DNA of 64,000 nt from Parcubacteria group bacterium (GTDB lineage Bacteria > Patescibacteriota > Minisyncoccia > 2-02-FULL-40-12 > IGHO2-01-FULL-4-A): NCBI GenBank assembly GCA_043821485.1, contig JBDRCU010000057.1:598-64597 (forward strand). Direction: 5' to 3'. Every line of letters begins with the position of its first letter. Position 1 is the stretch's first letter. The notes beneath the pieces were generated by a model. It worked only from the letters and a program-made list of their open reading frames with translations, was not told where the DNA came from and searched no databases. Shown piece by piece: positions 110-57,000 of this stretch. The translations under genes and the position numbers were made by a program.

Positions 110-874
110 TCAGTAGCAGGGGCGAGACTCGAACTCGCAACCCCCAGTATATGATACTGGTGCTCTAACCAGTTGAGCTACCCTGCCATTACTATCTGCT
201 TTTATGCTTGATTTTAGTAGGCCATTAAGCAGTCCAAGTATTTTATAGAAGATTTTGGTTCCTTGCAATATCCTGAAATGCAATGTTCCATAATGATCAT
301 CATAGTTTTCGTATACCTTTCTTTGTTTAGATTTTATGAATGTAGTTTTCCTGAATTGTTCGAGGGGCATATTTAGATAATCAGACCAATATTTTTTTAC
401 AATTTGTTCTCGTTTTGTGTGCATTACATTTATAAATACTGTTGGGGCAATTCTTTCATGAGTGATATCAAAGAACTTCATAAACCATTCTATCATAAAT
501 ACAATAACTCTGGGATCTGAGTTGGTGAAACCAAGTCTGCCTTTTGAGCCTTCGCCTAGATAAAGAGCTAAGCCAGCAACAAAAAATTCATTTTTAGACA
601 TTTTAGACATTTGTTCAATGCCTTCTTTCTCATACTCTTGCATAATTGCTATACGTCTATTTTTCTGTTTCAATGCGCCATTTAATTGGCCACGTCTAAT
701 GCCAGCTTGTTTTCGTGCAAGAAGTCTTTGTATCTGGAGCTCAGTTAGCTCTATATCTCTACACCATTCACTAGTAGTGCTTTTTGAGATTGAGACTAAA
801 AGGGCTATTTCTTTTATGCTTTTACCTGTGTGTCTTAATTGTCTGGCTTTTATTCTTTCTTGAGATTTCGCCAT
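110..874 (-). CDS. HTH domain plus putative single-motif LAGLIDADG-like homing endonuclease; 3' end of ORF reads through the tRNA-Met gene, so the true stop is uncertain
   Basis: The 254-aa ORF has an N-terminal helix-turn-helix-like segment (KSIKEIALLVSISKSTTSEWCRDIELT). It is followed by FFVAGLALYLGEGSKGRLGF, resembling the LAGLIDADG motif and following beta strands. The last ~25 codons are the reverse complement of tRNA-Met. Confidence 0.4.
   Translation of the reverse strand: MAKSQERIKARQLRHTGKSIKEIALLVSISKSTTSEWCRDIELTELQIQRLLARKQAGIRRGQLNGALKQKNRRIAIMQEYEKEGIEQMSKMSKNEFFVAGLALYLGEGSKGRLGFTNSDPRVIVFMIEWFMKFFDITHERIAPTVFINVMHTKREQIVKKYWSDYLNMPLEQFRKTTFIKSKQRKVYENYDDHYGTLHFRILQGTKIFYKILGLLNGLLKSSIKADSNGRVAQLVRAPVSYTGGCEFESRPCY
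114..187 (-). tRNA. tRNA-Met or tRNA-Ile2 (anticodon CAU), elongator type
   Basis: Reverse complement folds as a cloverleaf. Acceptor GGCAGGG/CCCUGCU, D-stem GCUC/GAGC, anticodon stem CCAGU/ACUGG with loop AUCAUAU (CAU), T-arm GCGAG-UUCGAGU-CUCGC, discriminator A. CCA not encoded. Confidence 0.8.
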
Positions 875-999: not shown

Positions 1000-1279
1000 C
1001 GCGGGGTGGAGCAGTCCGGTAGCTCGTTGGGCTCATAAGTAATTGTGACCCATTGTAGTAATACAATGTGGAAAAACTCCCGAAATTGCTGGAAACCCTA
1101 ATCTGTTTAAAACAGACGGGCAATCAGCAGCCAAGTCCTGAGAGTAATCGAAGGAAAGGTTCAGAGACTATAATGGGAGGACCCTACTCTTTTGAGGGGT
1201 CGTGGGATAGTCCGAACCTCCGAGTAATCGGAGTAACATTAGAACCCAAAGGTCGTTGGTTCAAATCCAACCCCCGCAA
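1000..1279 (+). tRNA. initiator tRNA-fMet (anticodon CAU) interrupted by a group I intron in the anticodon loop
   Basis: 5' exon 1000..1036 carries acceptor CGCGGGG, D-arm, and anticodon stem UUGGG with loop CUCAU. 3' exon 1243..1279 carries AA-CCCAA, T-arm GUUGG-UUCAAAU-CCAAC, acceptor CCCCGCA and discriminator A. The C1xA72 mismatch and three G-C pairs closing the anticodon stem are bacterial initiator hallmarks. Intron boundaries are uniquely fixed by U at -1 and terminal G. Confidence 0.8.
1037..1242 (+). ncRNA. group I self-splicing intron (206 nt) in tRNA-fMet anticodon loop, no ORF
   Basis: Conserved group I core elements are readable. P-like element AAAUUGCUGGAAACC (1083..1097) and Q-like AAUCAGCAGCC (1122..1132) are present. 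R-like GGUUCAGAGACUAUAA (1158..1173) and S-like GGGAUAGUCCGAAC (1204..1217) are present. P7 pairs GACUA with UAGUC; the intron ends in G after exon-terminal U. Confidence 0.75.
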
Positions 1280-1294
1280 CAAAGCAAATCACCC
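1271..1294. repeat. left copy of 24-nt imperfect direct repeat (CCCCCGCAACAAA-gc-AAATCACCC), spanning the tRNA-fMet 3' end (attL-like)
   Basis: Matches 1828..1851 (CCCCCGCAACAAA-tt-AAATCACCC) at 22/24 positions. Confidence 0.7.
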
Positions 1295-1317
1295 TTATTT
1301 TATAGGGGTGATTTTTG
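1286..1317 (+). terminator. rho-independent terminator after tRNA-fMet
   Basis: Hairpin AAATCACCC-ttattttata-GGGGTGATTT followed by TTTG. A near-identical hairpin follows the tmRNA at 53140..53172. Confidence 0.6.
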
Positions 1318-1394
1318 TAAGGGTATTGATGGTTTGAACTTGTTTGTATCATAAATTGTATCGTGTTATTTTAATTATATTCAAGGAGGCGCAG

Positions 1395-1520
1395 ATGCTC
1401 GAGTTACTCTGGTTTGCTTTCGTCAAGCTTCTTCTTCCAGGAATAATTCTGGGAGCAGTTCTCGGAGCTCTTGTCGTCACATACATCCACCGCAAGCAGT
1501 TGCAGGAGCAGAATGGATGA
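1395..1520 (+). CDS. 41-aa hydrophobic single-TM peptide (MLELLWFAFVKLLLPGIILGAVLGALVVTYIHRKQLQEQNG)
   Basis: AAGGAGG Shine-Dalgarno 6 nt upstream of ATG. GC-rich codon usage unlike the host. Stop overlaps the next start (ATGA). Confidence 0.35.
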   Translation: MLELLWFAFVKLLLPGIILGAVLGALVVTYIHRKQLQEQNG

Positions 1521-1663
1521 AAGACGAAGAGAAAAAGAAACGTGAAAAGCTGTATGAAGAGAGGCTTCGAGCGTGGGATGAACGACTTCGTCCTCAGCAG
1601 GAGGCTCTCGAGAGTAGTGAACGACTGACGGCTGAGGATTACGCCGTTGTCATCAACACATAG
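1517..1663 (+). CDS. 48-aa highly charged helical peptide (MKDEEKKKREKLYEERLRAWDERLRPQQEALESSERLTAEDYAVVINT)
   Basis: Translationally coupled to the upstream mini-ORF by an ATGA overlap and followed by a terminator. Confidence 0.3.
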   Translation: MKDEEKKKREKLYEERLRAWDERLRPQQEALESSERLTAEDYAVVINT

Positions 1664-1694
1664 GAGGGTCTGTATAGTACCAAATCATGACCGC

Positions 1695-1754
1695 CGTAAA
1701 GACCGCCTGAACCTAGAAAGGAGGTAGCGTCAGTACGGGCGGTCTTTACGTTTT
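1695..1754 (+). terminator. 13-bp perfect inverted repeat (CGTAAAGACCGCC / GGCGGTCTTTACG) with 30-nt loop, followed by TTTT
   Basis: Seen directly. It sits immediately after the coupled mini-ORFs. Confidence 0.5.
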
Positions 1755-1827
1755 ATACCTATTCTCTAACAAACTCATACCTCCAATAGCCTATATTCTG
1801 CATTAAACAAGTTCTAAACCTCTCAAT

Positions 1828-1851
1828 CCCCCGCAACAAATTAAATCACCC
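1828..1851. repeat. right copy of direct repeat (attR-like)
   Basis: Matches 1271..1294. It lies about 550 bp downstream of the tRNA, bounding a GC-rich insert. Confidence 0.7.
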
Positions 1852-2018
1852 AAATAGATAGGGAGTATTTCCAAATCCTGAGTTTTTTGTTAGGTTGTTA
1901 TTAAGGACCCAGGAGGTCTTGAGGGGTCTTGTGTACCCCTGTGTGGGTCGCCAGCGTCAACTGGAGGCCCACACATACATTCTATTATTAAATATTGGTA
2001 TAAATTTAGATATATATT

Positions 2019-2591
2019 ATGCAGGAAAAGCCACCCCAAAGGAAAAGCGATAAAAAAGAGAAGGTACTAAGTGCAGGAGATAAGAAACTATTTCAGGATA
2101 AACTAGCCATTATAAAGGGTATGGCTGTGCCAGATGTGCCGCCAGGATATGAAATTACATCTGATCAGGAGGAAGTTTTGAAAGGTTGGAATCTCGAGCC
2201 ACCGCGTACTAAAGCTCTTGCTAAATCTATGATGGAGTATGTAATGAGCGCTGAAGGCATGAGGGGTAAAGATAGTGGATTGAAAGATGAACGAATTCAA
2301 GACATATTGAAACTTCAGGAAGAATATCCGCGAGGGTCTATTGTAGTATGTAAGGAGGGAAAGGAACTCGAACCAGTTGTTGTGCTTGATGTGCTCTGTA
2401 GAAGCCCCAAAAGAAGAAGAGATATTCAACTGTATATGTCTGGTGAAAAGGGAGTTAGATTGAATAATCCAGTTGTTCATTTTGAATTGGTGGTTATGTT
2501 TAGGTCTGATCCTCGAGAACCGAAAATAAAACCAAGATCCTTTTTTAGGATTAGAAAATTAGATCAGGTTTTGGGTTCTGATCAAACGTAA
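2019..2591 (+). CDS. hypothetical protein (190 aa, charged)
   Basis: Long ORF; no recognisable motifs. Confidence 0.45.
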   Translation: MQEKPPQRKSDKKEKVLSAGDKKLFQDKLAIIKGMAVPDVPPGYEITSDQEEVLKGWNLEPPRTKALAKSMMEYVMSAEGMRGKDSGLKDERIQDILKLQEEYPRGSIVVCKEGKELEPVVVLDVLCRSPKRRRDIQLYMSGEKGVRLNNPVVHFELVVMFRSDPREPKIKPRSFFRIRKLDQVLGSDQT

Positions 2592-2654
2592 GTAAATAGA
2601 TATCTGAGTAATATAAAACAGCCCTAAAGGGCTGTTTTATATTGGTCTTATTGG

Positions 2655-4145
2655 TTATTGTGTTGGTGGTTGTTGTGGTGGTACCTGCGGGGGGACTGTA
2701 GGAGGTGCTGGTGGCGGTGATTGAGGAGGCTGTATTTGCTGAGGTGGTATAGTCGGTGGCTGTACTGGAGGTTGTGGCTGTTGTGGCGGCATGCTTGTTG
2801 GTGTACCCGAACCACTACCTCGTTTCATAAGTAGGATGATTACTATGACTATAACGATAACTGCTCCTCCGATGATCAGCCACAGATAGAGAGGTAAGCC
2901 AAGAATTTCTTTTGATAGGCCTGTTTTTTCGTCTGTATCATCTTTGCCATCAATTTCTGCTGTAGGCGTCGGGGAGTTTGTACTTGAAATCGGTTCCCCA
3001 TATTCATCAACGGGTTCTATCTTGAATGACGAATCTTTATGCATCGTTGTATAGTCATTTCCTACAAGGATATACAGAGATGATTCATCTATTTCTAGAT
3101 AGTTGGAAAGGCTATAGAATGGCAATTGGTCTCTTCCTTTCATTCTTCCATCTGCATATTGCACAAAGTATTCAGTTTTACTCCATTCGCCAGTTGACGT
3201 TATTCTTTTTATTTTCTGTCTGTCAGCGATGTGCATTATCATGACTATGCTTGGAGAGGAGCTTTCACTGGCTGGTACGAATGTATCGGTTTTTGCATCG
3301 TATTTTATATGTTCATCCGTATTTCTAAGCGTTATCTTGTATATTGCGTCTGGTTCCATATTAAATTTGAAATAGTCAAAGTCTCCTTCTCTTTGATGGT
3401 GATCTAATTGGTATTCACCGACTGTAACTGGCACTGCATCCGTAAAGCCATTGCCTCCCCTGACTCTTGTTTTCTCTATTGACGGATCTGTACTGGATTT
3501 ATCTATCCCTTGCTCCGTAGTAATAGCTCCGAGACTTGATTGCAGTGAAGCAGTATCACTAGCATCAAAGTATTTACCACATCCTAAATCAGCTACCCCT
3601 TGTAATTGGCTTCTTGTGGCGGAGTCTACTCCGAGACCCACGACGAAGCTTTTAACATTTATCCCTGCATCACATAGCGCCTTGGCTGCTGTTGCTGGAT
3701 TGCCTCCGCATGTCTCAAGGCCATCTGACAGTAGTATTAAAGTATTATCTTCTCCTGGGACAAAGTCATTGGCTGCTTGCTGTAATGCATATGCTGTGGG
3801 AGTATAGTTGCCTACTGCTTGAATACTATTAACCTTGTTTATCACTGATTGGTGGTTTGTAGTAAATGATTGGAGTAAATCAGTAACAATACATGCTTGT
3901 CCTTTATCTGATTTCGATATATGAGCATAAGCTCTTAATCCTGAATTGATTGATGAATCAAATCCTGAAAGAAGATCATTTACAGCTGCTTTAGCTGCAT
4001 CTATACGTGTTGTTCCTCCAAAACTATCAAGCATTGATCCTGATGCATCAAATACGATTAATACATTTTGATTAGCTGCGTTGGCGGTAGAAGATAATGC
4101 AAATCCAGCAATAATGATTATCAGAAATATTATTAATTTTTTCAT
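2655..4145 (-). CDS. secreted von Willebrand factor A (VWA) domain protein with C-terminal TM anchor and Pro/Gln-rich tail
   Basis: Signal peptide MKKLIIFLIIIIAGFALSSTANA. MIDAS motif VLIVFDASGSM, with LILLSDGLETCGG downstream. A TM helix near the C-terminus is followed by a PPQQP repeat tail. Confidence 0.75.
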   Translation of the reverse strand: MKKLIIFLIIIIAGFALSSTANAANQNVLIVFDASGSMLDSFGGTTRIDAAKAAVNDLLSGFDSSINSGLRAYAHISKSDKGQACIVTDLLQSFTTNHQSVINKVNSIQAVGNYTPTAYALQQAANDFVPGEDNTLILLSDGLETCGGNPATAAKALCDAGINVKSFVVGLGVDSATRSQLQGVADLGCGKYFDASDTASLQSSLGAITTEQGIDKSSTDPSIEKTRVRGGNGFTDAVPVTVGEYQLDHHQREGDFDYFKFNMEPDAIYKITLRNTDEHIKYDAKTDTFVPASESSSPSIVMIMHIADRQKIKRITSTGEWSKTEYFVQYADGRMKGRDQLPFYSLSNYLEIDESSLYILVGNDYTTMHKDSSFKIEPVDEYGEPISSTNSPTPTAEIDGKDDTDEKTGLSKEILGLPLYLWLIIGGAVIVIVIVIILLMKRGSGSGTPTSMPPQQPQPPVQPPTIPPQQIQPPQSPPPAPPTVPPQVPPQQPPTQ

Positions 4146-4175
4146 AAAGAATGTTAGTTAACTATTGTTGAGTTA

Positions 4176-4637
4176 TTACTGGACTAAAAGACTTCCAACA
4201 TTTACAGCTGATCCGCAGCCAATTGTTATAGTATAAGGGGTACTGTCGGCTTTTGCCTGGACTATTTTAAATCCAAGTCCGGGTATTTGATACGCAAAGC
4301 CATCCAAGGAAACCCATCTTGCATCCCCTGAACGATTATCAAGCATTATGTTTGTTCCGTTTAGAAGAGACAACCTCCCAGGACTTACCTGACAGTTTGC
4401 GTCAAATTGCAGTCTTGTGCCTGCAAATTGTACGAGTGCTTCCTCATAGGTAAGGCCAGAAGTCTGTGATGAAGGAGCTCGAGGCGTACTAGTCTTAGGG
4501 GGACTGCTAGGTGTCTCCGTTGGAGTCTCAACTAGAGTATCCTCATCTTCATTTGCTGTTCGCTCCGGACCCATAGCCAGAACTATGATAATTGCAAGAA
4601 TTAATATTATTACAATTACTATAAATGATTTGCTCAT
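4176..4637 (-). CDS. hypothetical N-terminally membrane-anchored protein (153 aa)
   Basis: N-terminal TM helix, Pro/Thr-rich linker, then a C-terminal globular part. Confidence 0.5.
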   Translation of the reverse strand: MSKSFIVIVIILILAIIIVLAMGPERTANEDEDTLVETPTETPSSPPKTSTPRAPSSQTSGLTYEEALVQFAGTRLQFDANCQVSPGRLSLLNGTNIMLDNRSGDARWVSLDGFAYQIPGLGFKIVQAKADSTPYTITIGCGSAVNVGSLLVQ

Positions 4638-4707
4638 ATTAAATTACGCCAAAGACGTTTTAGTTATATAGCTATATTTTACAATAGAGTGAAAGATAAA
4701 GGAAATG

Positions 4708-5433
4708 TTATCGAAAGATCGATCCTAATAATAGGTAGTATATCGAAGAAAACAGTGTGCTTGGTATGAGCATCGATTGGTTCTGATTTTGATCGGTTAC
4801 TATTATCGTACCGTTATTAGTTGGATGTAGGTGATCGTGATAATCCCATCTGCCTGCAAATTCAAATTCGAATGTCCATGATTGGCCAGGCTCCATATTA
4901 GTACATGCATCAAATGTACTCATAAGACAGCCATAACGTCCAGGATATGCATCGTGTGTATAATGAGGATTACTTGCAGGTCTTATTGTCTCAAATGAGT
5001 TATTTTTAAATTCTATAGAATCTCCTATTTCTATAGTTACTGTATTTGGTGCAAAGCCATAGCTGGTACGTTCGACTATGATTGTTTGAGGTGTTGGTTC
5101 TGGCGTCGGTGTTATGGTTGGCTCTGGTGTTGATTCTGAAGTGGGCGTAGGTTCGTCAGTTGGCTCTGATGTAAGTGTCGGAGTTGGTATTGGTGTTGCT
5201 TCCGGAGTTGGTTCAGGTGCACTGCTTACTGTTTCTGTAGGAGTTGGAATTTGGGTGGCCTGTGGAGGTGTTTGTGCTGGAACTAGTACTGTCTCGACTG
5301 GAGTCTCTATTGGCTCTTCCGTGTTTAGTGTTGGGGTAAGATCATCTCCTGCTAATTTGTCATCCTTTTGCATAAATACGAAAATCAGCGCTATTACTAT
5401 TACAGCAACTACTATTATGATATTTGTTTTCAT
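4708..5433 (-). CDS. membrane-anchored protein with Pro/Thr-rich linker and C-terminal cupredoxin-like domain (tentative)
   Basis: N-terminal TM, a long TPEPTP-type linker, then FAPNTVTIEIGDSIEFKNN...H...C...HDHLH, reminiscent of plastocyanin/pseudoazurin-type copper sites. Confidence 0.45.
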   Translation of the reverse strand: MKTNIIIVVAVIVIALIFVFMQKDDKLAGDDLTPTLNTEEPIETPVETVLVPAQTPPQATQIPTPTETVSSAPEPTPEATPIPTPTLTSEPTDEPTPTSESTPEPTITPTPEPTPQTIIVERTSYGFAPNTVTIEIGDSIEFKNNSFETIRPASNPHYTHDAYPGRYGCLMSTFDACTNMEPGQSWTFEFEFAGRWDYHDHLHPTNNGTIIVTDQNQNQSMLIPSTLFSSIYYLLLGSIFR

Positions 5434-5442
5434 ACTTCTATT

Positions 5443-8349
5443 CTAATTGCAAACGCCTGTTGTTGCAAAGCAATTTGGGCATGAGTAGCAAGATCCAGCC
5501 CTAAACATTATGGTTCCGCATTCACATGTAGGGGCGTCTGTATGTGATTCTTCTACTTTGAGATTCCAAGGATCGTCTTTTTTACTGGTTGAAGCGAGTG
5601 TTGCAGTAGGAGTACTTGATTCTTTGGTTTTGCCATTTAGTATCTTTCCAAAAAGTTCTTTTTGATCCTCTGCGCTAAGGAATTTAAAGCCTAGGTATGT
5701 AAATATATAGTCTACAAATGAAGTTGAAAACGGAATTTCATTATTTTGTGTTGGTCCCATTGGTTCGAATCTCATATTTTTGAAATGTCTGACTAGTGTT
5801 TTAAGCGGTACTCCTGATTGCAGACAAATTGATGTTAGCTTTGCAATTGCATCCATGAGACCAGAGACCGTACTTCCTTCTTTTGCAATAGTTATGAAAG
5901 TCTCTGCCGGCTTACGGCTTTCTGGATACATTCCCACCGTTATGTACCCTTCGTGTTTGCCAACTGTGAACTTATGAGTAATAGACGGACGTTCGTCTGG
6001 AAGTTTGATTCTGGTATGGCCGTTTATTTGTTCAACGAGTTTTTTTTCTTTATCGCTCGTACTAAGGGCTTGTACGGTTTTGGATCCATCTCTATAGATT
6101 GCCATTGCTTTAAGTCCAAGTTTCCATGATTGTACAAATGCATCACGTACATCTTCTTTGGTAGCATCATTCGGCAGATTGATTGTTTTGGAAATTGCTC
6201 CGGAGATGAAGGGTTGAGCAGCACTCATCATCTTGATGTGTCCGAGATAATCAATGCTTCGCTTTCCTTCTGCTGGTTTGAAAGAACAATCGAACACTGG
6301 CATGTCTTCTTCCTTCATATGTGGTGCGCCTTCAAGCATTCCTTTCTCAAGAATGTATGCAGAAATATCTTTGATGTCCTGTTCTTCGTAACCCAGCTTC
6401 TCAAGAGCTAACGGCACAAGATTGTTAACAAGTTTGAGCGTTCCGCCTCCAACGAGCTTTTTGTATTTAACAAGTGCAAGTTCTGGTTCTATCCCTGTTG
6501 TCGCGCAGTCCATTAAGAAAGATATCGTACCCGTTGGTGCAAGTACTGTTGCTTGTGAGTTACGAAAACCATATTGTTCTCCCAATGCATATGCATTTTT
6601 CCAAATTTGTTCACTTACATCTATTAAATCTGATACCCATGAGCTATTCATTAAAACTATATCTGTTGTAGATGACAATGTTACCGTCGGAGTTGATCCA
6701 TTCATTGTGACACGCGCTACTCCGGGTGAGACGCCATTTCCATTTCCATTGAGATGTCCGTTAGTATCTGTTGCTTTGCGATAATTTTGTGCAAGAGTTT
6801 CCGCTGCACGGCCGTGTTTTTTGATAACTCTAAGCATTTCATTACGATTCATTTCATAGCCATTGAAAGGTCCTATGCGTCCTGCTATTACAGCTGACAT
6901 GCGATAAGCTTCTCCCGACATTATTGATGTTAATGCTGCTGCAATTGTACGTCCTTCGTCAGAATCATAAGGTAGGCCAAGAGCCATAAGGAGCGCTCCT
7001 AAATTAGCATATCCAAGGCCAAGCTGTCGAAAGTCATGCGCGGTTTTTTCTATTTCAGGCGTTGGATATGAAGAATTGCTGATTAGTATCTCTTGAGCTG
7101 TTATCATTGTCTTTGCTGTGTTTTTATATCCTTCGATATCATAAGTTCCATCTTCTTTAAGGAATTTGAGTAGATTTATGGAAGCCAGATTGCAAGCACT
7201 ATTGTCTAAGCTCATATATTCGCTGCAAGGGTTAGACGCATTAATGCGTCCTGAATTTGGACATGTGTGCCAGTCGTTGATTATCGTATCGAATTGCATT
7301 CCTGGATCTGCGGAATGCCAGGCTGCATCTGCAATCCAGTCCATGACCTTGCCTGCTTTAAGAGTCTGAGCTACATTTCCTGTTGTGACTTCATTTAAAT
7401 TCCAATCGGCATCACTTTCTACCGCTTTCATAAATTCATCAGTAACACGTACGGAATTGTTTGCATTTTGATAAGGCAGTAAAGTGTAGGGATCGAACAA
7501 GTCTCCTTCAATTGAATTCTGAACTCCGCTTGCTTCAAGCACCTTTACCATGTCTTCAATATTTCTTTTGCAATATATGAAGTCTTTGATGTCGGGATGA
7601 TCAGCATTTAAAACTACCATTTTTGCTGCGCGTCTTGTTGTTCCGCCAGAACGAATACTATTTGCAACACCATCAGCTCCTTTCATGAATGAAACGGGAC
7701 CGGATGATTTGCCTCCCCTTGAAAGAGATTCCTGTGACGATCGAAGCTTGGAAAGATTTGCTCCTGACCCAGAACCATATTTAAAAATCCATCCCTCATC
7801 ATGATACCACTTTAAGATGGATTCCATTGTGTCTTCTACTGCAAGGATAAAACATGCAGAGCATTGCGGACGTTCATATACTCCGACATTAAACCAAACA
7901 GGACTATTGAAAGCTGCAAATTGATTTATTAAAAGATATTTAAGATCTTGTTTGAAGTTTTCGTAGTCAATTTGTGTTTTGAAATATCCGTCTTTGAATC
8001 CCCATCCTGAAATTGTATTTGCAACACGGTCAACCATGGCACGCGCGCTAGTCTCGCGTTCAGGCGTATCGAGTTTGCCACGGAAGTATTTGGAAGCAAC
8101 AATATCTATTGCTGTTTGCGACCAGAATTCCGGCACCTCAATATCAAGTTGTTCAAAAACAACAGAACCGTCTCCGCGGGTAATTTTTGCATTTCTTTTT
8201 TCCCAAGAGATTGCATCATACGGATCATTGGAGCCGAAAATTCTTTTCCATGTTAATCCTTCTCCGCGTTGAGAGGATGTAAATCGTTCAGAAGAGGCAT
8301 CTGAAGTATCAACGGTGTCGGGATTTTGCAGAGTGTGAGATCTTGTCAT
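5443..8349 (-). CDS. nrdJ: class II (adenosylcobalamin-dependent) ribonucleotide reductase
   Basis: The 968-aa protein has RNR class II core motifs (PCSEYM, NLASINLLKF, and a radical-site Cys/glycyl-free architecture). The C-terminal zinc-ribbon CECG...CYSCPNC is typical of NrdJ. Confidence 0.9.
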   Translation of the reverse strand: MTRSHTLQNPDTVDTSDASSERFTSSQRGEGLTWKRIFGSNDPYDAISWEKRNAKITRGDGSVVFEQLDIEVPEFWSQTAIDIVASKYFRGKLDTPERETSARAMVDRVANTISGWGFKDGYFKTQIDYENFKQDLKYLLINQFAAFNSPVWFNVGVYERPQCSACFILAVEDTMESILKWYHDEGWIFKYGSGSGANLSKLRSSQESLSRGGKSSGPVSFMKGADGVANSIRSGGTTRRAAKMVVLNADHPDIKDFIYCKRNIEDMVKVLEASGVQNSIEGDLFDPYTLLPYQNANNSVRVTDEFMKAVESDADWNLNEVTTGNVAQTLKAGKVMDWIADAAWHSADPGMQFDTIINDWHTCPNSGRINASNPCSEYMSLDNSACNLASINLLKFLKEDGTYDIEGYKNTAKTMITAQEILISNSSYPTPEIEKTAHDFRQLGLGYANLGALLMALGLPYDSDEGRTIAAALTSIMSGEAYRMSAVIAGRIGPFNGYEMNRNEMLRVIKKHGRAAETLAQNYRKATDTNGHLNGNGNGVSPGVARVTMNGSTPTVTLSSTTDIVLMNSSWVSDLIDVSEQIWKNAYALGEQYGFRNSQATVLAPTGTISFLMDCATTGIEPELALVKYKKLVGGGTLKLVNNLVPLALEKLGYEEQDIKDISAYILEKGMLEGAPHMKEEDMPVFDCSFKPAEGKRSIDYLGHIKMMSAAQPFISGAISKTINLPNDATKEDVRDAFVQSWKLGLKAMAIYRDGSKTVQALSTSDKEKKLVEQINGHTRIKLPDERPSITHKFTVGKHEGYITVGMYPESRKPAETFITIAKEGSTVSGLMDAIAKLTSICLQSGVPLKTLVRHFKNMRFEPMGPTQNNEIPFSTSFVDYIFTYLGFKFLSAEDQKELFGKILNGKTKESSTPTATLASTSKKDDPWNLKVEESHTDAPTCECGTIMFRAGSCYSCPNCFATTGVCN

Positions 8350-12061: not shown

Positions 12062-12319
12062 TTATAGTTTAATTGTACGTTTTACTTTTTGTTTCTCTTC
12101 TTCAAATGTTTCTCTGTCATGTTTGCCCATGCGCTGTAAATGCTTGCGCAATGTGCGTAAATGCGTACGCATAATGGCTCTTCTTTTTTCTGTAAGAAGA
12201 CTCGCCTTTCTTTGCTTGTATTGTTTTGCCTTGGCCTGCTTAGTAGGCTTCTGTGCCAAACGTCCAAAACGGCGTATTAGCGCTCCTGTACTTTCATTTG
12301 GTTTTCTTTTTACTTCCAT
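12062..12319 (-). CDS. rpsU: 30S ribosomal protein S21 (extended C-terminus)
   Basis: GALIRRFGRLAQK resembles the S21 signature (ALRRFKRSCEK). It is a basic protein placed directly before yqeY. Confidence 0.65.
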   Translation of the reverse strand: MEVKRKPNESTGALIRRFGRLAQKPTKQAKAKQYKQRKASLLTEKRRAIMRTHLRTLRKHLQRMGKHDRETFEEEKQKVKRTIKL

Positions 12320-12383
12320 AATTGCCTCCTTTCTAAATATAACAAACTAAGGATAATACAGTACCATAGTTTAATATCTATGT

Positions 12384-15383: not shown

Positions 15384-16598
15384 TTATTCGCCGGGAGTCT
15401 TCAGGCTCAGCGTTTCACGATCGCTGAATCTGGACTCGATAATGAGCTTTTGATCGGGGACGCCGGCGTGGACAGTTTTCCCCACAACCATAGCCTCGTG
15501 CCCGTCTTTCCATGCCTCCTCACAGATCCTTTGGACATCCGTTGGTTCGCAGATGACGAACATACCACAACCGCCATGGAAGGTGTTGTAGCAGTCGTAG
15601 TCGCTCAGAGGTGAGTCGCCGCACTGTAGTGAGAGGGACTGTGCTTTGAGCAGAACTTCCGGTGCTTCGGGCATCTGGTCCAGGTGTACGCCAATCCCTT
15701 CAGGCAACAGTTCTCCGAGCTTGCTCCATACACCCCCACCGGTGACGTGCGCGATGCCGTGGATGCGGGCCAGTGGTGGGCCGGGTTCGCCATCTTGAGT
15801 CCAGCCCAGGAGTCGTGTGATCGTCCTGGCATAGCTCCGTGAGGGAACAGTGAGCTTTTTCACGTATGCCATGGCGGTTGCATTGTTCGAGATCAAATCG
15901 ATTTCCGGTCCCCACGTGCCCAGGACGATATTGGTCAGGGCTGTACCACCGTTGCAGCGGTAACCGAACTCCCTGAAGCCCACGACTGCCATTCCCGAGT
16001 TGATACTGGAACCGTCGATTCGCAGGTCGGTCCTGGTAAGACCGATGCATGTTCCGCCCCACGTAAGCACGAGTTGACCATCGCTGTCGGTGTCGCAGAA
16101 GGCAGTGATGCTGTGCTTCATGACCGCGGTTTCGCCAGTGATGTTTGCAAGTCCGGCTTGCCGAAGGGCTGCGCCATGGCCGTTCCACAGGGCACGGCAT
16201 AGATGGATGTTTTTGGCGGTGACCCTTTTGACGTTCAGGTCATTCGCCATGATGGCCGGGAAGCCGCCGCCTGCCACAACGTCGTCGGCGTTCATGGTGA
16301 TGATTTCCCAGCCGAGATCGTTGAAGGCTTCCTCTTCGTTCAGAAGCGTGAAGAACTGGGGCTTGCCTCCGGCTCCATCGTTTTGGACCGTCTCGCGGAC
16401 ACGACGATCAATCATCAACTTGAGGATGTGCTCCCTCCAGAGGAATTCGGGCAAGCCACCGCGGAAATGTCCTGTCTGCTGTGGGTAAATCGTCACAGCT
16501 GGACAGTTTCCACTGCTTGCCAAGCAGACTTGATGTCCGAGTCTAGACATCTCATCGCCGGGATTGATTACTTCGGACCTGTAGCTCATTCTTTGCAC
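15384..16598 (-). CDS. PurM-like (AIR synthase-related) ATP-binding protein of unknown function, GC-rich (probably horizontally acquired)
   Basis: PurM superfamily motifs MNADDVVAGGGFPA and HVTGGGVW. Not obviously SelD (no GAGCGCK) or HypE (no C-terminal Cys). Many overlapping shadow ORFs in the ORF track reflect the high GC. Confidence 0.7.
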   Translation of the reverse strand: MQRMSYRSEVINPGDEMSRLGHQVCLASSGNCPAVTIYPQQTGHFRGGLPEFLWREHILKLMIDRRVRETVQNDGAGGKPQFFTLLNEEEAFNDLGWEIITMNADDVVAGGGFPAIMANDLNVKRVTAKNIHLCRALWNGHGAALRQAGLANITGETAVMKHSITAFCDTDSDGQLVLTWGGTCIGLTRTDLRIDGSSINSGMAVVGFREFGYRCNGGTALTNIVLGTWGPEIDLISNNATAMAYVKKLTVPSRSYARTITRLLGWTQDGEPGPPLARIHGIAHVTGGGVWSKLGELLPEGIGVHLDQMPEAPEVLLKAQSLSLQCGDSPLSDYDCYNTFHGGCGMFVICEPTDVQRICEEAWKDGHEAMVVGKTVHAGVPDQKLIIESRFSDRETLSLKTPGE

Positions 16599-20582: not shown

Positions 20583-20673
<91 letters not shown>

Positions 20674-20767
20674 ATTGTATTTTTGAATATAAGTAGATTC
20701 TATCTGTGTATAACTTTTTTACATAAGTTATTGACAAAGTTTTTTACATCAGTTATACTGGTGTATT

Positions 20768-21547
20768 ATGTTTGGAAAGCTTATACGACAACAACGCAAA
20801 AAATTTAATCTCTCGCAGGAATATCTTGCATTAGAGCTTGGTATCTCCCGCCCTACCCTTGTGCAGATTGAGCGTGGAGAGCGAGATTTGACTATAAATG
20901 AAGCGAGAAAGATTGCAGATGTTTTTGCTATGAGATTTGAAGACTTCATTGCTGGCAAAACGAGCAAGGTGCCGAAGCGGGAAGTGATTATAGAGAAAGG
21001 AAAGAGCAGACTAAAGCAGGTTGATCTTAAGATTCGCGTAACTAGTAAGAATCTGGATAAGTTTAAGCAGATACTTTTGTATATACTTGGGAAGATCGGC
21101 GGGAAACCCAATGTTGGCGAAACGGTTTTACACAAATTACTCTACTTTATTGATTTTGACTATTATGAAAAGTTTGAAGAAAACCTGATGGGTGCAACAT
21201 ACATTAAAAATCATCACGGGCCCACTTCAGTTGAGCTAGGTCCCATAATCAAAGACATGCAGGCAGATAAAGAGATAGAAACCGTGAACAGCAAATACTT
21301 TAAATATGAACAAAAGAAGTATCTTCCGCTTAAGCGCCCTGATCTTGGCAGGCTCACAGCCCGTGAAGTTGAGCACATTGATGATGTGCTTGCGCGCCTT
21401 TCGGACAAGAATGCAAAAGAAATAGAGAATTATTCGCATGGAGACATTCCGTGGAAAACGGCTGAGCGTGGCGAGCCTCTTTCATATGAAAGTGTCTTTT
21501 ATCGTGACGAAAGGTATTCCGTGAGAAATTACGATGATGAACTTTGA
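20768..21547 (+). CDS. XRE-family HTH fused to Panacea (DUF4065, SocA-like) domain: putative antitoxin
   Basis: N-terminal HTH (LSQEYLALELGISRPTLVQIERGERD). The central TVLHKLLYFIDFDYYEKF segment is typical of Panacea/DUF4065. A 14-nt overlap with the downstream RelE-like ORF. Confidence 0.65.
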   Translation: MFGKLIRQQRKKFNLSQEYLALELGISRPTLVQIERGERDLTINEARKIADVFAMRFEDFIAGKTSKVPKREVIIEKGKSRLKQVDLKIRVTSKNLDKFKQILLYILGKIGGKPNVGETVLHKLLYFIDFDYYEKFEENLMGATYIKNHHGPTSVELGPIIKDMQADKEIETVNSKYFKYEQKKYLPLKRPDLGRLTAREVEHIDDVLARLSDKNAKEIENYSHGDIPWKTAERGEPLSYESVFYRDERYSVRNYDDEL

Positions 21548-21866
21548 CGAGCTGCCGGAATTTGTAAAAGAATTCAAAAGGCTTTTGAAAAAATACAGGT
21601 CTCTTCAGGGTGACTTGAATGAATTTAAACGTATTGTTTCTGTTCTGCCCCTGGGTACGGGAAGGCATTTTAATGTTGTTTCAAGTATTGGAAACGTAGA
21701 CGTAGTAAAGGCGCGTCTTTTTTGTAGGTATCTGAAAGGGTCGTCTCTTCGGATTATTTATGCATACATCAGGGAGCAGAAAAGGATCGAATTCATAGAA
21801 ATATACTTCAAGGGTGATAAAGAGAACGAAGACCGTGGCAGGATTGTAGGATATTTGGAATCGTAG
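21534..21866 (+). CDS. RelE/ParE-superfamily toxin-like protein
   Basis: 110 aa with a RelE-like C-terminal segment (RIIYAYIREQKRIEFIEIYFKGDKENED). Paralogous to the ORF at 23323..23673 (shared LKKYRSL and YFKGDxE motifs). Confidence 0.6.
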   Translation: MMNFDELPEFVKEFKRLLKKYRSLQGDLNEFKRIVSVLPLGTGRHFNVVSSIGNVDVVKARLFCRYLKGSSLRIIYAYIREQKRIEFIEIYFKGDKENEDRGRIVGYLES

Positions 21867-23763: not shown

Positions 23764-24486
23764 TTAGTGTTGCGCCCACATGTCGTAGCAGGTCTTGCCG
23801 CCGGTTTCGCAGTCCAGCGACGCGACGTTATTGGTCTTGGCGGAATAGTGGTAGCAGGTGTAGTAGCACTGCCATATGCTTCCGTAGATACGATAAGGGC
23901 CGCAGGGTAGGTCGTTGAGCCTGCGGAATGTCACCTTGGCCTTTGCTTGGGCTGGCAGATATACGTACCCCAGGTAGTAGTACCTGGAGCACTCTACATT
24001 GAGGACCCAGAGGTCAACGTAGCTTCCGGCGTAGTATTCCTCTTTGCCGAATTTTTTAAACAGCTTGATCGTGATTTTCTTCCGGTTCATCCGGAAGTCT
24101 TCGATCCTGAACATCTCCCAGTTTGTCTCATCTACCGCGTTGGCGGTCTGGGCGGTGTCGCCGTTCAGGACGAGAGCCGAGGAGGCAGTGGACAGGCTGT
24201 CCATCTTCGCCTCGAATTCGTTCTTCGCCACGGTGGCCCCGGGCATCAGTCCGAAGACCTCATCAGGGCGATCCGTTTTTCCTTCGAATTCCTGTTCGTT
24301 CAGGAGTTCGATGTCGCGGAAGCTTCCCTGTTCGCCGTCAGTGAAGGGGGTGGGCGCGTGGTCGGCGGTCAGGTTGCTGCCGATTTCCCCGAGCGTGTCG
24401 GGGGTGACCGGATTCGAGCTGCAAGCTGCGAACGTCATCATCGCTACCACGATCAAGATCTGGAAACCGAAACCGTTCTGTCTCAT
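23764..24486 (-). CDS. lipoprotein of unknown function, GC-rich (foreign)
   Basis: Signal peptide with lipobox FAAC. Multiple C-terminal Cys (CGPYRIYGSIWQCYYTCYHY...C...C). GC content far above the host. Flanked by GC hairpins at 23690..23725 and 23740..23765. Confidence 0.55.
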   Translation of the reverse strand: MRQNGFGFQILIVVAMMTFAACSSNPVTPDTLGEIGSNLTADHAPTPFTDGEQGSFRDIELLNEQEFEGKTDRPDEVFGLMPGATVAKNEFEAKMDSLSTASSALVLNGDTAQTANAVDETNWEMFRIEDFRMNRKKITIKLFKKFGKEEYYAGSYVDLWVLNVECSRYYYLGYVYLPAQAKAKVTFRRLNDLPCGPYRIYGSIWQCYYTCYHYSAKTNNVASLDCETGGKTCYDMWAQH

Positions 24487-47824: not shown

Positions 47825-48772
47825 TTGTGCGACACAGCTATATATTGCTATACTATATATGTGAATATCAAAGATCTCAAAAACCAATTCCTTGAACATC
47901 TAGAAATTGAGAAAAATAGATCCCCCAAAACAGTAGAAAATTACGATCACTATTTATCTAGATTCTTTATTTTTGCAAAAATAGACAAACCCTCACAGCT
48001 CACTGAAGAGTTGATCCGCAAATTCAGACTGCATCTCAATAGAATGACCGATAACAAAGACAAATCACTTAAGAAGGTAACTCAAAATTATCACATTATT
48101 GCGCTTAGGGCTTTTTTGAAATATCTATCGAAGCGGGATATACAAACTGTTCCGGCAGAGAAAGTAGAGCTTGGCAAGCAAGAAGAGCGACAAGTTGAAT
48201 TCCTTGAAGAAGGCGAGTTAAAGAAGTTTTTGGATTCTCCAAAGATGAATACGCTTGCAGGACTTCGTGATAAATCAATTCTTGAGACTCTTTTTTCAAC
48301 CGGGCTTCGCGTATCAGAGTTATGTTCACTAGATCGAGACTCAATTGATCTTGATAGGGGAGAGTTCTCTGTAAAAGGCAAAGGCAGTAAGATACGGTTG
48401 GTCTTTTTATCTGATGATGCCAAGTCTACGATTATTCAATATCTAGATAAACGAGTTGATGCTGATGAGGCGCTTTTCATACGAGTTCCTAAGGATGAAA
48501 AATTTGAAAAATACGAAAACCTTCGTCTCACTCCACGCAGTATACAGAGAGTCATTAAAAAGTATGCAATTGAATCAGGCATTGTAGGCAAGAAGGTCTC
48601 GCCTCATACATTACGCCATAGCTATGCAACAGACCTTCTTCGCAATGGTGCTGACATCCGTTCAGTGCAGGCTATGCTTGGACATTCATCTGTAACAACA
48701 ACTCAAATTTACACTCACGTGACAGACAAGCAGTTACGAGAGGTGCATAAGAAGTTCCACGATAAAAAGTAG
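47825..48772 (+). CDS. xerC: tyrosine recombinase XerC/XerD family
   Basis: C-terminal catalytic region HTLRHSYATDLLRNGADIRSVQAMLGHSSVTTTQIYTHV. The true start may be the GTG giving MNIKDLK. Confidence 0.85.
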   Translation: MCDTAIYCYTIYVNIKDLKNQFLEHLEIEKNRSPKTVENYDHYLSRFFIFAKIDKPSQLTEELIRKFRLHLNRMTDNKDKSLKKVTQNYHIIALRAFLKYLSKRDIQTVPAEKVELGKQEERQVEFLEEGELKKFLDSPKMNTLAGLRDKSILETLFSTGLRVSELCSLDRDSIDLDRGEFSVKGKGSKIRLVFLSDDAKSTIIQYLDKRVDADEALFIRVPKDEKFEKYENLRLTPRSIQRVIKKYAIESGIVGKKVSPHTLRHSYATDLLRNGADIRSVQAMLGHSSVTTTQIYTHVTDKQLREVHKKFHDKK

Positions 48773-52753: not shown

Positions 52754-53133
52754 GGGCTTGAAAGGCTTCGATGGAGGTTCATTTACAGGATTGAGCACGT
52801 CGAGTTTACCGATGTCTCGTAAATAATGTCGGTGCAAGATAAGTGCAAACACATCTTATCAAATGCCATCTATGGCAGGAATGTCACAAATGGCAGTAGC
52901 ATAACTTTTTAGTATAGCTACCGTCTTACCTCGGATTCTCGCTAGGGGGATAAGGCGTCATTAGCGAGAAACTTTGCCTGCTATTACTATGACGGCAGAA
53001 CATCGCAATTCCCATAGTACATTGCCTGAGCTTTTGTTCATTCCTTATCAGGCGGTGTAAATCGGAATGAACTAAACGTGTAGTATCATCTTGTATCAAC
53101 TTTCAGACGGGGGTTCGATTCCCCCCGAGTCCA
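52754..53133 (+). ncRNA. ssrA: tmRNA (ssrA)
   Basis: 5' GGGCUUGAAAGGCUUCGAUGGAGG resembles the tmRNA 5' end. The acceptor stem GGGCUUG/CGAGUCC contains a G3:U pair. T-arm GGGGGUUCGAUUCCCCC, discriminator A. The candidate tag reading frame 52845..52904 encodes ANTSYQMPSMAGMSQMAVA then a UAA stop. Confidence 0.8.
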
Positions 53134-53137
53134 CAAA
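53124..53137. repeat. left copy of 14-nt direct repeat CCCGAGTCCACAAA (tmRNA 3' end, attL-like)
   Basis: Identical copy at 53919..53932. Confidence 0.7.
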
Positions 53138-53139
53138 CG

Positions 53140-53172
53140 AAATAACCCTTATTTTACGGGGGTTATTTTTGT
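53140..53172 (+). terminator. terminator hairpin after tmRNA (AAATAACCC-ttattttac-GGGGGTTATTTTT)
   Basis: Near-identical (28/32) to the hairpin after tRNA-fMet at 1286..1317. Confidence 0.6.
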
Positions 53173-53286
53173 TGACTCCCAGGGATATTTGAACCTTTTC
53201 AAACAAAAAAGCGTCACAGGTGTGATGCTCTTTTGATTCTGGGCGACCCCTGATTGCTCGTGTGAGCAGGGGTCGCCCATCTGTAC

Positions 53287-53670: not shown

Positions 53671-53918
53671 TTTTGGCCTCCTTTTTTAAAGTACCCCACC
53701 CCTAACGAGGTTTCGGGGTTAATTTTTGCTTTTCGCTATAGACACAATGCCTATGCGAGTACAGCCCCCTTCCCGGGTCTTCTGTCAATTTAATGTATAT
53801 TATAACATATAATATATTCTTTTGTCAACCTCATATATAGTAGATTCAAACTTCAATTACACCACCCAATTCCCAAAAACCCCTCATCTCCCTCACCAAA
53901 AGGTTCATATTAAAACAT

Positions 53919-53932: not shown

Positions 53933-54004
53933 GAAAAAATATAAAACACCCTTTTGGGTGTTTTATATTGGAATAAATTGGATGCTTAATGATATAATTA
54001 ATCT

Positions 54005-57000
54005 ATGCTTGATCCTCAACTAATAACTTACATATCTCAACAACGCCAAGCGGGTATTCCAGATGATCAAATACGATCCAGTCTTTTGTCTTCAGGATGG
54101 CAGGCTACAGACATCGATACGGCTCTTGGTGGGGGACAAGCTCAACCTGCTCAAACAACGCAACCTGTTCAGCCCACTCAACAACCTCAACCAGTGCAAC
54201 AACCCCAACCAACCTCTTCAAAGAAAACTCTTATCCTAATCATAGTCATGACTGTACTCATCATAGCTCTCATAGCTTCGTACTTCCTTTTCTTCAGAGA
54301 TTCATCTTCTGATCCAACCCCAACTCCTCAATCCCCAACCAAGCGAACAACAATCAATGCATATGGTACTACCATAACTCCGGGAGTAGATTACTATGAA
54401 GGATTGATAGTATTCAGTCTCAGAAATGATAAAAGATTGACTTATCAAAATGGAACTGATCTTCCTGAAGGGTTAACGCCCATCGATCAATTAGATGATA
54501 CTAACCCTAATTCTCTAATATCTCTATTCAATCAATATAACTCTACAGACTTAGAAAGAAACTATAGAGGAATAGATGAACAAAGCACTTCATATACATT
54601 ACATATACCAGAAGACACAGATATCCTTGAGATAATGACTGATTTGCAGAGGACATCAGAAGTTAGATTTGCTGAACCTAGGTATATACCATATCTAGAT
54701 GATGCGCCATCAGATCCATTTTTTCGTTCAAAAGGGTCATTAGGGGGCGATTATGATGATCAATGGAATTTTAAACTCATAAATATGGAACAGGCATGGG
54801 AGATATCGAAGGGAGAAGGAGTTACAGTAGCTGTGATAGACTCGGGCGTGGATCATGAACACCCTGATTTAGAGGGGAACGTTCAAGAGGGCTATTATTA
54901 TAGCTACGGATGGAAGGATACCGATATAAAACCTCGAGGTATTCATAAGGGATGGGTAGGCGATTGTACTCAGACTCATGGTACAATGGTTTCTTCTATT
55001 CTGGCAGCCAAGAATGATGGCAAGGGTATGGTGGGTGTAGCACCAAAAGCAAAGATTATACCAATAGTGGGTATAAGATCAGTTTCTTGCAATGGCATAG
55101 AGGGTGAATCTTTAGGTTATGAAATGTCCATAAGGAAAGCAGCCGATTTGAATGTGGATGTAATAAATATGAGTTTGGGTTATCGAGTTCCTCTTGTATC
55201 TGCTGATCTTACTGAGGCAGTACTCTATGCGGTAAATAAGGGAACGGTGTATGTTACTTCTGCAGGTAATGATCATAGAGACACGACTTTTGGCTCCCCT
55301 GAAAATATTCATGAAGCAATAGTTGTCGCAGCAGTAGATGAGAATGATAAAAAAACAGATTATTCTAACTATGGACCAACAATTGATGTGACTGCTCCAG
55401 GCGGAACTTGGAAGAGACCCATATTAGGAGCATGGTCTACAATGTTCCCAGGTGATGCGACATATGATAAAGAGGAATCTGTAGTCGATGAGAAAGGGCT
55501 ATATGCAGGGACAACGGGAACCTCCTTTTCTGCCCCTACTGTAGCAGGTGTAGCAGCTCTTGTTATAGCTCAGGATAAAACCTTAACACCAAGTGAAGTG
55601 GAATGTGCATTGAAGCTCGGAGCAAAAGATGTAGAAGAGCCAGGATTCGATCCAAAGTCAGGATTTGGGAGAGTAGATGCATATAAGTCACTACTTTTAT
55701 CCAAGGATGACTTAAAGCCATTTGATGAAGAAGGTAATCCTACAGAAGCAGAAAAATGTTTTGAGCAGGTAGCGATAACATATCCTGGGATAAATGAAGG
55801 TATAAATGCAACAAGATTAGAGCCACTAGGAATTAGAGGTTTAGTATCTATTACAGATATTGACTATTATGTCCTGGAATATCTTAAAGAAGGAGCTAAT
55901 CCAAAGACAGGATGGATAGAGATATTTAGGGATACTAAAGAAGTAAAAGATGGGATTTTAGGACAATGGGACATAAAGGATTTAGAGGAAGGGAATTACC
56001 AATTGCGTCTGCATGCATTTAATAAGTCCGGTAAGCGATACGAAAATGAAGTATCTTTCTATATATATAAAACCGTTGCATGTTTTATTGACGGAATTAC
56101 CAGCATTGATGGGACTACAAGGAATCTAGTAGAGCCTACGAGATGTAAAATTATGACGGAATTAAGCTCTTCTAGTCCACTTTGGCTAACATTTAAAGAT
56201 AAGAGTTGGCAGATAGTTTATCCCATACCAGGTGATGGTCGAATTGTAACCTATGATGATAAGACTCACTATCTATATGTAGATAAGAAAAGTTGTGATG
56301 ATAATAATCCTGAACACGAATTTCGTGTAAATTGTAGTTGTATTGATAAGTATCCAGCTGAAAGTATATGCGTAGAAGAGGAGTATACATTTACTGATAA
56401 ATCAGGTGTAAGGAAATCAAATACGAGTGCCTACGGTATATTATCTCATTGGCAAGAGAATGATCCAGGTAAGGTAACATGTGAGGCAGTAGATGATTTA
56501 GCAGATGATACTGATCTTAGTAGTCCATTTAATTTTGAGCACGACAATGAGTTCTTATGTGAAGAGAAGGAGGATACGCCGGAACCAGTTGTATCAGATG
56601 AGAGTATACTTTGTACTTTTTCATCTGAAGAAAGAAAAGAAGGAGATTTCATTTCACATGCACAATCAAGAGGTATGGTTAGTAGTGGGGGGAGTATCGA
56701 AGGTATATCCCTTAGTTATGAAGAGAGAACTGTGTTTAAAAATGGTAAGGTATATCTTGCTTCGGATTTTTTTGGATCATTTGATTCAGGAGGTGGAGTC
56801 GATGATTGTAAATGGGTTTATGCTGATTATCCTTCAGATAAATTTGGTCTATTATCTAAAGAAGAGATAGATATCGAGATGATGCATTCAGATAGAAGAC
56901 TTGATGATGAGTTGGGACTACCGCCAATATTACCGAAAGATCTATGCACAAGGGATGTCTCTTCTGAACTTTTTGAAACGCCAGGTAAAGAATGCAGTAT

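Follow-up and report, generated by a model that had tools for sequence, protein, structure and literature searches.

Partial tRNA copies are standard by-products of the integration of mobile elements (PMC9897764). The classical tRNA- and tmRNA-integrating elements are those of Reiter (1989) and Williams (2002), as cited in PMC9897764, together with Islander-type islands. Cis-mobilizable elements (CIMEs) are decayed forms derived from integrative and conjugative elements (ICEs) or integrative and mobilizable elements (IMEs); they keep both attL and attR and have lost their integration and transfer genes (PMC5704250), and the tycheposon islands of Prochlorococcus are tyrosine-recombinase elements at tRNA genes, accompanied by tandem elements, degenerate remnants and partial tRNAs (bioRxiv 10.1101/2020.12.28.424599). 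Here we analyzed a 64,000-nt stretch of a Parcubacteria group bacterium (GCA_043821485.1, contig JBDRCU010000057.1, positions 598 to 64,597), hereafter the window, in which two short inserts lie at the 3' ends of an initiator tRNA gene (tRNA-fMet) and of the tmRNA gene. It is probable that both are site-specific integration footprints of one element family that targets the 3' ends of stable RNA genes. Our best reading of the inserts is that they are CIME-like, either non-autonomous mini-elements that were served in trans or internally deleted remnants, as in both of them the attL- and attR-type repeats are kept and genes for integration and transfer are absent.

The insert at tRNA-fMet is bounded by two copies of a 24-nt direct repeat, CCCCCGCAACAAA and AAATCACCC, which match at 22 of 24 positions and are spaced 557 bp apart (Table 1). 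This repeat had been noticed in a first-pass annotation of the window, made from the sequence without database searches, and it is not a product of chance: with up to three mismatches allowed, it has only two matches in the 64 kb, against none expected (100 shuffles), and gapless extension lengthens the pair to 1266-1294 and 1823-1851. Its annotated make-up, the tRNA end plus half of a terminator hairpin, was borne out both by the ARAGORN fold of the spliced gene and by hairpin folding, as the left copy starts inside tRNA-fMet, of which it takes in the last ~9 nt, and runs on into the 5' arm of the terminator, which we term term1 (stem 1286-1314). ARAGORN misses tRNA-fMet in the window itself because the gene is interrupted by a group I intron of 206 nt, which splits the anticodon loop right after the anticodon (Rfam RF00028 Intron_gpI, 1025-1234, 75.8 bits); such introns have recently been described in tRNA genes of Patescibacteria (PMC13011429). 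Once the intron was removed, the program identified a canonical initiator tRNA-Met(cat), with C1 mismatched to A72 and an anticodon stem that contains three G-C pairs; the gene ends at ~1279, without an encoded CCA.

When the 3' end of every tRNA and tmRNA gene in the window was compared with the sequence downstream of it, a second insert of like design was found at tmRNA. Here again the repeat includes the 3' end of the target RNA, matching at 17 of 19 positions, and the target gene is intact, being full length by its Rfam match. The two repeat copies are 795 bp apart, giving an insert of ~0.8 kb compared with ~0.5 kb at tRNA-fMet, and at both loci the repeat core ends in C(A/C)ACAAA, exactly at the RNA 3' processing site. 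The two loci also share a 40-nt module that contains term1. Its two copies are identical at 34 of 40 positions (within-window blastn E = 1e-5; score 25, compared with a null maximum of 14.5), they differ by a compensatory C..G to A..T change that preserves the stem, and the module occurs nowhere else in the window.

Each insert also has inverted repeats toward its ends. At tRNA-fMet, ATTGATGGTTTGAACTTGTTT on the left, which begins 30 nt past the left direct repeat and beyond the terminator, corresponds to ATTGAGAGGTTTAGAACTTGTTT, the reverse complement of AAACAAGTTCTAAACCTCTCAAT on the right. The two match in 20 of 23 columns, a score reached by ~0.1% of position-matched random pairs (p about 0.001, with a null that includes some self-hits). 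The corresponding repeats at tmRNA, ATTTGAACCTTTT and AAAAGGTTCATAT, match at 12 of 13 positions (p about 0.007), and at each locus the sequence TTTGAAC begins 14-15 nt past the term1 module (at 1333 and at 53188, respectively). Together, the tmRNA insert, the shared term1 module and the inverted repeats support the tRNA-targeting, integrative architecture in miniature that had been proposed for the first insert alone.

The combination of terminal inverted repeats (TIRs) with flanking direct repeats would also be shown by miniature inverted-repeat transposable element (MITE)-like derivatives of a TIR transposon or casposon-type element, if they inserted next to tRNA genes with a long target-site duplication. 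Casposons do target tRNA 3' ends, where they produce duplications of 14-15 bp. We nevertheless regard such an origin as very unlikely. The left inverted repeat is parted from its direct repeat by the terminator module of 30-44 nt, and the right one, which abuts its direct repeat at tRNA-fMet, is never more than 8 nt away from it, so that the inserts do not have the layout of a MITE or TIR element. The direct repeats differ in length (24 vs 19 nt) and are longer than usual duplications, and no transposase or Cas1 was seen among the longer window open reading frames (ORFs), a subset of which was scanned against Pfam. Furthermore, had term1 been duplicated along with the target, it should recur after the right repeat at tmRNA, and instead a different, perfect hairpin, term2, stands there.

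The flanks are better accommodated by site-specific integration. Insertion inside the core would leave native flank to the right of the right repeat, with the sequence to the right of the left repeat derived from the element. An element-borne terminator by which the RNA gene is healed would account for term1, which at two unlinked loci lies to the right of the left repeat, and native flank would account for the different hairpin that follows the right repeat at tmRNA; because this hairpin is term2 and not term1, target-site duplication of the core plus terminator is excluded at this locus. The right-hand terminator at tRNA-fMet has decayed from -15.8 kcal/mol, the value for term1, to -4.0 kcal/mol, which also argues for integration.

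From this arrangement we infer the recombination mechanism, the flank that is element-derived and the site of crossover. A circular element would carry an attachment site that copies the last ~10 nt of the RNA gene and a few flanking bases, with the C(A/C)ACAAA at the core ends as a candidate crossover segment. Recombination would put the element directly after the RNA gene, which would now end with the term1 of the element, and the original 3' fragment with its native flank would be displaced to the far end. The inverted repeats, with TTTGAAC and GTTC.AA just inside the junctions, would represent candidate recombinase-binding sites, and what is left would be the observed 0.5-0.8 kb, in which the cargo is one or two small genes and a recombinase is lacking.

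Several observations weigh against integration by an element of this kind. The inserts hold only ORFs of 41, 48 and 127 residues and no integrase, an absence that had been claimed for the tRNA-fMet insert and that we confirmed for both. The sole recombinase among the longer ORFs of the window (47825-48772; Phage_integrase, 145 bits) is of the Xer type (XerD 243 bits, XerC 240 bits and XerA_Arch 233 bits, the last above the model cut-off) and lies outside both inserts, ~4 kb upstream of the tmRNA 5' end. Searches of viral contigs, phage records and plasmid records yielded neither a parent element nor a contig with an attP: the viral contigs had no match to the att core or the term1 module, to the right inverted repeat, to the 48-aa family described below or to the 127-aa ORF, and the 48-aa peptide had no match in the phage or plasmid records. 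A scan of one genome per species anchored on RNR gave three loci (L002-L004) at 65-67% RNR identity, which we rejected as empty sites since they are too distant, and the RNR-anchored metagenome scan found no relative. With no close relative in these scans, neither an empty site nor a presence/absence polymorphism was shown. The left inverted repeats are 30-44 nt from the repeat core, and their role is therefore a putative one. A simple model with two boundaries also fails to explain why a further copy of term2 stands 760 bp beyond the right end of the first insert, after an ORFan gene (2019-2591). The two term2 copies, its only matches in the window, are identical at 31 of 36 positions with a compensatory G..C indel, and the sequences upstream of them have no significant similarity to each other. 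The second copy may be where the variable region at tRNA-fMet truly ends on the right, and the segment 1852-2609 (a structured leader plus the ORFan) could represent an earlier accreted unit that has lost its right repeat.

Lastly, the compositional signal of the tRNA-fMet insert is modest. The insert (1295-1827) has a GC content of 43.5% compared with 40.4% for the window, which places it in the top 13% of equal-sized windows, and its earlier description as much more GC-rich than the host was thus overstated for overall GC. What does stand out is the GC content at third codon positions (GC3) of its two ORFs, 0.52 and 0.49, compared with a host mean of 0.356; both are higher than 48 of the 51 longer ORFs of the window. 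The ORF pair as a unit has a GC of 49% (top 6% of windows), and immediately beyond the right repeat, in the gene 2019-2591, GC3 has a host-like value of 0.31.

The slight excess in GC over the host and the failure to find an integrase are what would be expected of a non-mobile local rearrangement, in which slippage or illegitimate recombination duplicated the tRNA end and its terminator around ordinary host DNA. We give this explanation hardly any credence. The DNA between the copies is unique rather than a tandem duplication, the GC3 values just mentioned are not those of ordinary host genes, and a like architecture with the same 40-nt module occurs at an unlinked RNA gene 52 kb away. In its simplest form, a local duplication of the terminator, it is ruled out by the tRNA sequence that the repeat holds, by the unique and atypical DNA between the copies and by the different terminator at tmRNA.

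A further question is whether the inserts are live, that is, non-autonomous mini-elements that are still moved by an integrase elsewhere in the genome, by a helper element or by the host Xer recombinase. Several features are consistent with this: both ends are kept in both inserts (the cores at 22/24 and 17/19, and the inverted repeats), two small members of one family occupy separate targets in a span of 64 kb, neither the cargo ORFs nor their signals are disrupted, and there is an Xer-type recombinase in the window. We think it unlikely, however, that they are live. No helper element was found in the viral, phage and plasmid collections, and the search of 5.8 billion proteins revealed no copy of the cargo in any other genome. 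The term1 copies are only 85% identical, and this divergence of 15% together with two mismatches per direct repeat suggests that the events were not recent. The inserts also do not resemble integrative mobile elements exploiting Xer (IMEX), as they lie at RNA-gene 3' ends and not at dif, and their att cores are unlike dif sites and, by direct reading of the sequence, have no dif-like dyad symmetry.

Table 1. Features of the two inserts, their target genes and the associated terminators, in window coordinates
Feature	Position	Strand	Remarks
tRNA-fMet (CAT)	1000-1279	+	exon 1 1000-1036, group I intron 1037-1242, exon 2 1243-1279
Left direct repeat, attL-like core	1271-1294	+	last ~9 nt of tRNA plus 15 nt of 3' flank
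term1 module (40 nt), tRNA-fMet locus	1279-1318	+	homologous to 53133-53172
Left inverted repeat	1325-1345	+	matches reverse complement of 1805-1827
ORF for 41-aa single-pass transmembrane peptide	1395-1520	+	AAGGAGG at 1383-1389, 5 nt before ATG
48-aa ORF	1517-1663	+	overlaps 41-aa ORF by ATGA; own AGGAG 8 nt upstream
Hairpin after ORF pair	1695-1750	+	13-bp perfect stem, extends to 15 bp; -28.1 kcal/mol; followed by TTTTAT
Right inverted repeat	1805-1827	+	abuts right direct repeat
Right direct repeat, attR-like core	1828-1851	+	displaced fragment of tRNA 3' end
Decayed terminator copy after right repeat	1843-1873	+	weak similarity (ATAGGG.GT.ATTT); folds at -4.0 kcal/mol
term2 copy	2610-2645	+	after ORFan 2019-2591
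tmRNA gene, target of second insert	52754-53134	+	ARAGORN; Rfam 128 bits
Left direct repeat, second insert, CCCGAGTCCACAAACGAAA	53124-53142	+	tmRNA 3' end plus 8 nt
term1 module (40 nt), tmRNA locus	53133-53172	+	homologous to 1279-1318
Left inverted repeat, second insert	53187-53199	+	
Sole cargo ORF of second insert, 127 aa	53287-53670	-	GC 57%, GC3 0.77
Right inverted repeat, second insert	53898-53910	+	pairs with 53187-53199
Right direct repeat, second insert, CCCGAGTCCACAAAGAAAA	53919-53937	+	compared with 53124-53142
term2, perfect terminator hairpin	53938-53971	+	directly after right direct repeat; differs from term1

The cargo of the tRNA-fMet insert is an intact, translationally coupled pair of genes, for a single-pass transmembrane (TM) peptide and a 48-aa predicted helical protein, and both ORFs are present as they had been annotated from the sequence, including the AAGGAGG ribosome-binding site. 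The TM peptide has a hydropathy peak of 2.66. In the NCBI record, on a contig of 85,969 bp, it is represented as a protein of 58 residues (TTG start at 1344, ABH833_03930), which was also the only protein recovered for it in the 5.8 billion-protein search, so that the 41-aa peptide has no sequence relatives there. The 48-aa ORF is absent from the record, in which the locus tags go directly from ABH833_03930 to ABH833_03935, the 190-aa ORF at 2019-2591. Exact-protein look-ups returned no record for either peptide, for the 190-aa ORF or for FtsZ. The inverted-repeat terminator that had been noted behind the pair is present as a hairpin with a stem of 13-15 bp and a T-tract, and probably terminates the two-gene cassette; its loop of ~20 nt is long for an intrinsic terminator. 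As for the second insert, its 127-aa ORF has no match in Pfam, PHROG or NCBIfam.

The suggestion that the pair resembles a small membrane toxin module found no support. Neither peptide matches a family in Pfam, NCBIfam, PHROG or PADLOC (sub-threshold Pfam hits to TauE, at 17 bits, and to DUF6132 are both unrelated), Rfam has no match within 1280-1851, and nothing in the family searches or in the genomic contexts described below links the pair to toxin-antitoxin systems.

The 48-aa protein is a member of an unnamed conserved small-protein family. It was initially matched to a 78-aa Logan protein through an exact SERLTAEDYAV block. A profile of these two sequences identified 31 proteins at E <= 1e-3 among 1.84 billion representatives, nearly all of them 49-81 aa in length, and the family profile identified 68 at the same threshold among 5.8 billion proteins, all "hypothetical" or unnamed and none with a Pfam domain. 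The C-terminal core that emerged is Y..a..W(D).+L.P..dA(I/V)..SER(L/I)TAEDYAV.IN, and we define the SERLTAEDYAV family as proteins of 45-90 aa with the core Y..a..W(D/x).+L.P..dA(I/V)..SER(L/I)TA.D.A..I(N), for which there is no entry in Pfam, NCBIfam or PHROGs. Over its full length the window protein aligns to 28 representatives with 29-60% identity; it contains the motif WD.+L.P..dAI..SERLTAEDYAV.IN, with SERLTAEDYAVVIN at the C-terminus, and is close to the minimal version of the family. AlphaFold2, run with 41 sequences, predicts a helix over residues 2-35 and an extended conserved C-terminal motif (mean pLDDT 84), and a profile search of the PDB gave only a marginal resemblance to dimerizing SARAH coiled-coil helices (E = 0.03).

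Genes of this family are found in heterogeneous contexts, chromosomal, archaeal and virus-like, and mostly without a TM partner. For instance, a family gene follows secF at two loci, one of the two contigs being from a Pacebacteria metagenome-assembled genome (MAG; L005 and L018), and on a putatively archaeal contig (L016) it follows a PolD-like gene, as judged from the N-terminus of the protein. Tandem family copies follow pyrG at L001, family genes adjoin tRNA genes at L009, L012 and L017, and at L015 and L019 they are beside genes that appear excisionase- or XRE-like from their translations, as judged by eye. One locus, recovered as both L007 and L013, is in a 47-kb contig of mostly unknown small genes, tentatively virus-like by its appearance. 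At this locus a single-pass TM peptide of 33 aa with a basic tail is encoded directly upstream, overlapping the start of the family gene by GTGA and the preceding gene by ATGA, and a C1-family peptidase follows the family gene. Coupling of a TM peptide to a family protein therefore occurs at two of the 14 distinct loci, the window and L013, which supports the view that both small ORFs are real genes able to work together and that the TM partner is not obligatory. We also considered the family gene as a general tRNA-linked cargo and rejected this, as a tRNA gene is within ~0.6 kb at only four of the 14.

One of the tRNA-adjoining family genes (L012) is in a cassette-array-like structure (4900-10150 of L012, which is the same as 9900-15400 of L021; JGI 3300079305 Ga0643772_0000001, 544 kb), with no integrase within 10 kb. 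Ten intergenic copies of a repeat, TTCCAACATCGTNCCRGRCGGCCAG, seven of them close and three degenerate, lie on the same strand, with most intervals holding one small gene. A single gene separates tRNA-Gln from the start of the array, in which the SERLTAEDYAV family member occupies one unit. The repeats were considered as tRNA-derived att sites, and this was rejected since their similarity to the tRNA-Gln 3' end is not significant.

The presence of two related sub-kilobase, att-flanked cassettes in 64 kb would mean that site-specific integration has shaped this genome. Genomes of the candidate phyla radiation (CPR), to which the Patescibacteria belong, are thought to have few routes of gene gain, and to our knowledge their mobile elements are poorly described. 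It is possible, if doubtful, that Patescibacteria have a family of recombinase-less integrative cassettes of 0.5-0.8 kb moved in trans by an unlinked integrase. We propose, with similar caution, that such a cassette would be made up of an att core with a copy of a stable RNA gene's 3' end, a terminator of its own with which that gene is healed, inverted binding sites and one to two small cargo genes. If so, the cassettes would be a minimal vehicle for the exchange of small genes in ultra-small genomes, including the SERLTAEDYAV family and its TM partner, and if they can be mobilized they would rank near the smallest known integrative units. If they are only decayed remnants, they represent an ordinary, textbook integration scar, of value mainly for annotation. 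Either way, an unannotated 48-aa gene has been rescued, and with it a conserved family that is found in bacteria, CPR, DPANN-like and possibly phage-derived contigs.

Several other observations concern the surroundings of the two inserts. At L002-L004, RNR is followed directly by tRNA-fMet on the same strand. The tRNA-fMet of the window is inverted and split from RNR by four genes, three for secreted or membrane proteins and the ORFan 2019-2591 (region 1279-8349), and this changed linkage indicates a rearrangement at the locus. L004 has an intron at the same site of its tRNA-fMet (12065-12349), which L002 and L003 do not have. The terminator after tRNA-fMet at L003 was considered as a term1 homolog and dropped, its score of 9.0 being within noise (99th percentile 10). 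Between the right repeat and the ORFan, at 1880-2000, there is a GC-rich structure of three hairpins with a minimum free energy of -46.2 kcal/mol (z = -3.8; no shuffle folds as well) and no Rfam match. On the other side of tRNA-fMet, an ORF of 254 codons (110-874, minus strand) has an N-terminal helix-turn-helix (HTH), for which Pfam and PHROG give weak hits, along with a LAGLIDADG-like motif, FVAGLALYLGEGS. No stop codon precedes the same-strand tRNA-Met (113-187), so that its last ~25 codons are the tRNA gene. Divergent beside the intron-bearing tRNA-fMet, it is a candidate for a homing-endonuclease-like gene of the free-standing kind, for which the PDB and family searches gave no confirming match. 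Directly downstream of the tmRNA-linked insert are two adjacent paralogs of ~1000 aa (54005-57160 and 57203-60208, plus strand) with near-identical N-termini, M..PQL.TYISQQRQAGI.DDQIRSSLLSSGWQA.D.D.ALGGG.

Elsewhere in the window, two minus-strand genes, 15384-16598 and 23764-24486, have a GC of 56-57%, a GC3 of 0.66-0.77 and sharp GC boundaries, with no flanking direct repeats; one of the two is AIR-synthase-related and has a PHROG hit to "moron/auxiliary metabolic gene". At 20583-21866, a tRNA-Ser gene is followed at once by a gene with HTH_3 and SocA/Panacea domains (20768-21547), which is overlapped by an ORF of 110 aa that has a PHROG hit. The two resemble a toxin-antitoxin pair located at the 3' end of a tRNA; a search over 20 kb gave no repeat of the tRNA-Ser end.

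The systems with which these inserts can be compared resemble them to different degrees. The 41-aa peptide, hydrophobic, single-pass and with a basic tail, is like the toxins of type I toxin-antitoxin systems; in contrast to these, it has no homology to known toxin families, there is no evidence of an antisense RNA, and its partner belongs to an uncharacterized family that mostly occurs without a TM peptide. With classical prophages and islands at tRNA and tmRNA genes the inserts share a repeat that comprises the RNA-gene 3' end, a gene restored by sequence from the element and a displaced 3' fragment at the far end; however, they are without an integrase and ~two orders of magnitude smaller, and of the gene their repeat takes in no more than the last ~10 nt, together with flank. 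As with tycheposons, the setting is a streamlined genome in which small cargo lies by tRNA genes between partial RNA-gene copies, and integrase-less remnants occur. The differences are that here there is no integrase or replication module of the tycheposon type, that there are two small units in an unrelated phylum, and that the island variability seen in tycheposons contrasts with inserts known from one genome. CIMEs, by comparison, are several kilobases in length, compared with 0.5-0.8 kb here, and no related autonomous element is known for the present inserts, whose host is a Parcubacteria (Patescibacteria) MAG and not a Firmicute and whose mobilization is hypothetical. The likeness to CIMEs is in the flanking att-type direct repeats, into which the target gene's 3' end is taken up, the lack of an integrase, the tRNA-type site and, at the tRNA-fMet locus, a possible accretion (tandem arrangement). 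What is unusual among these systems is the combination found here in a CPR host, namely units of 0.5-0.8 kb, both of which keep both ends and their inverted repeats and which share a terminator.

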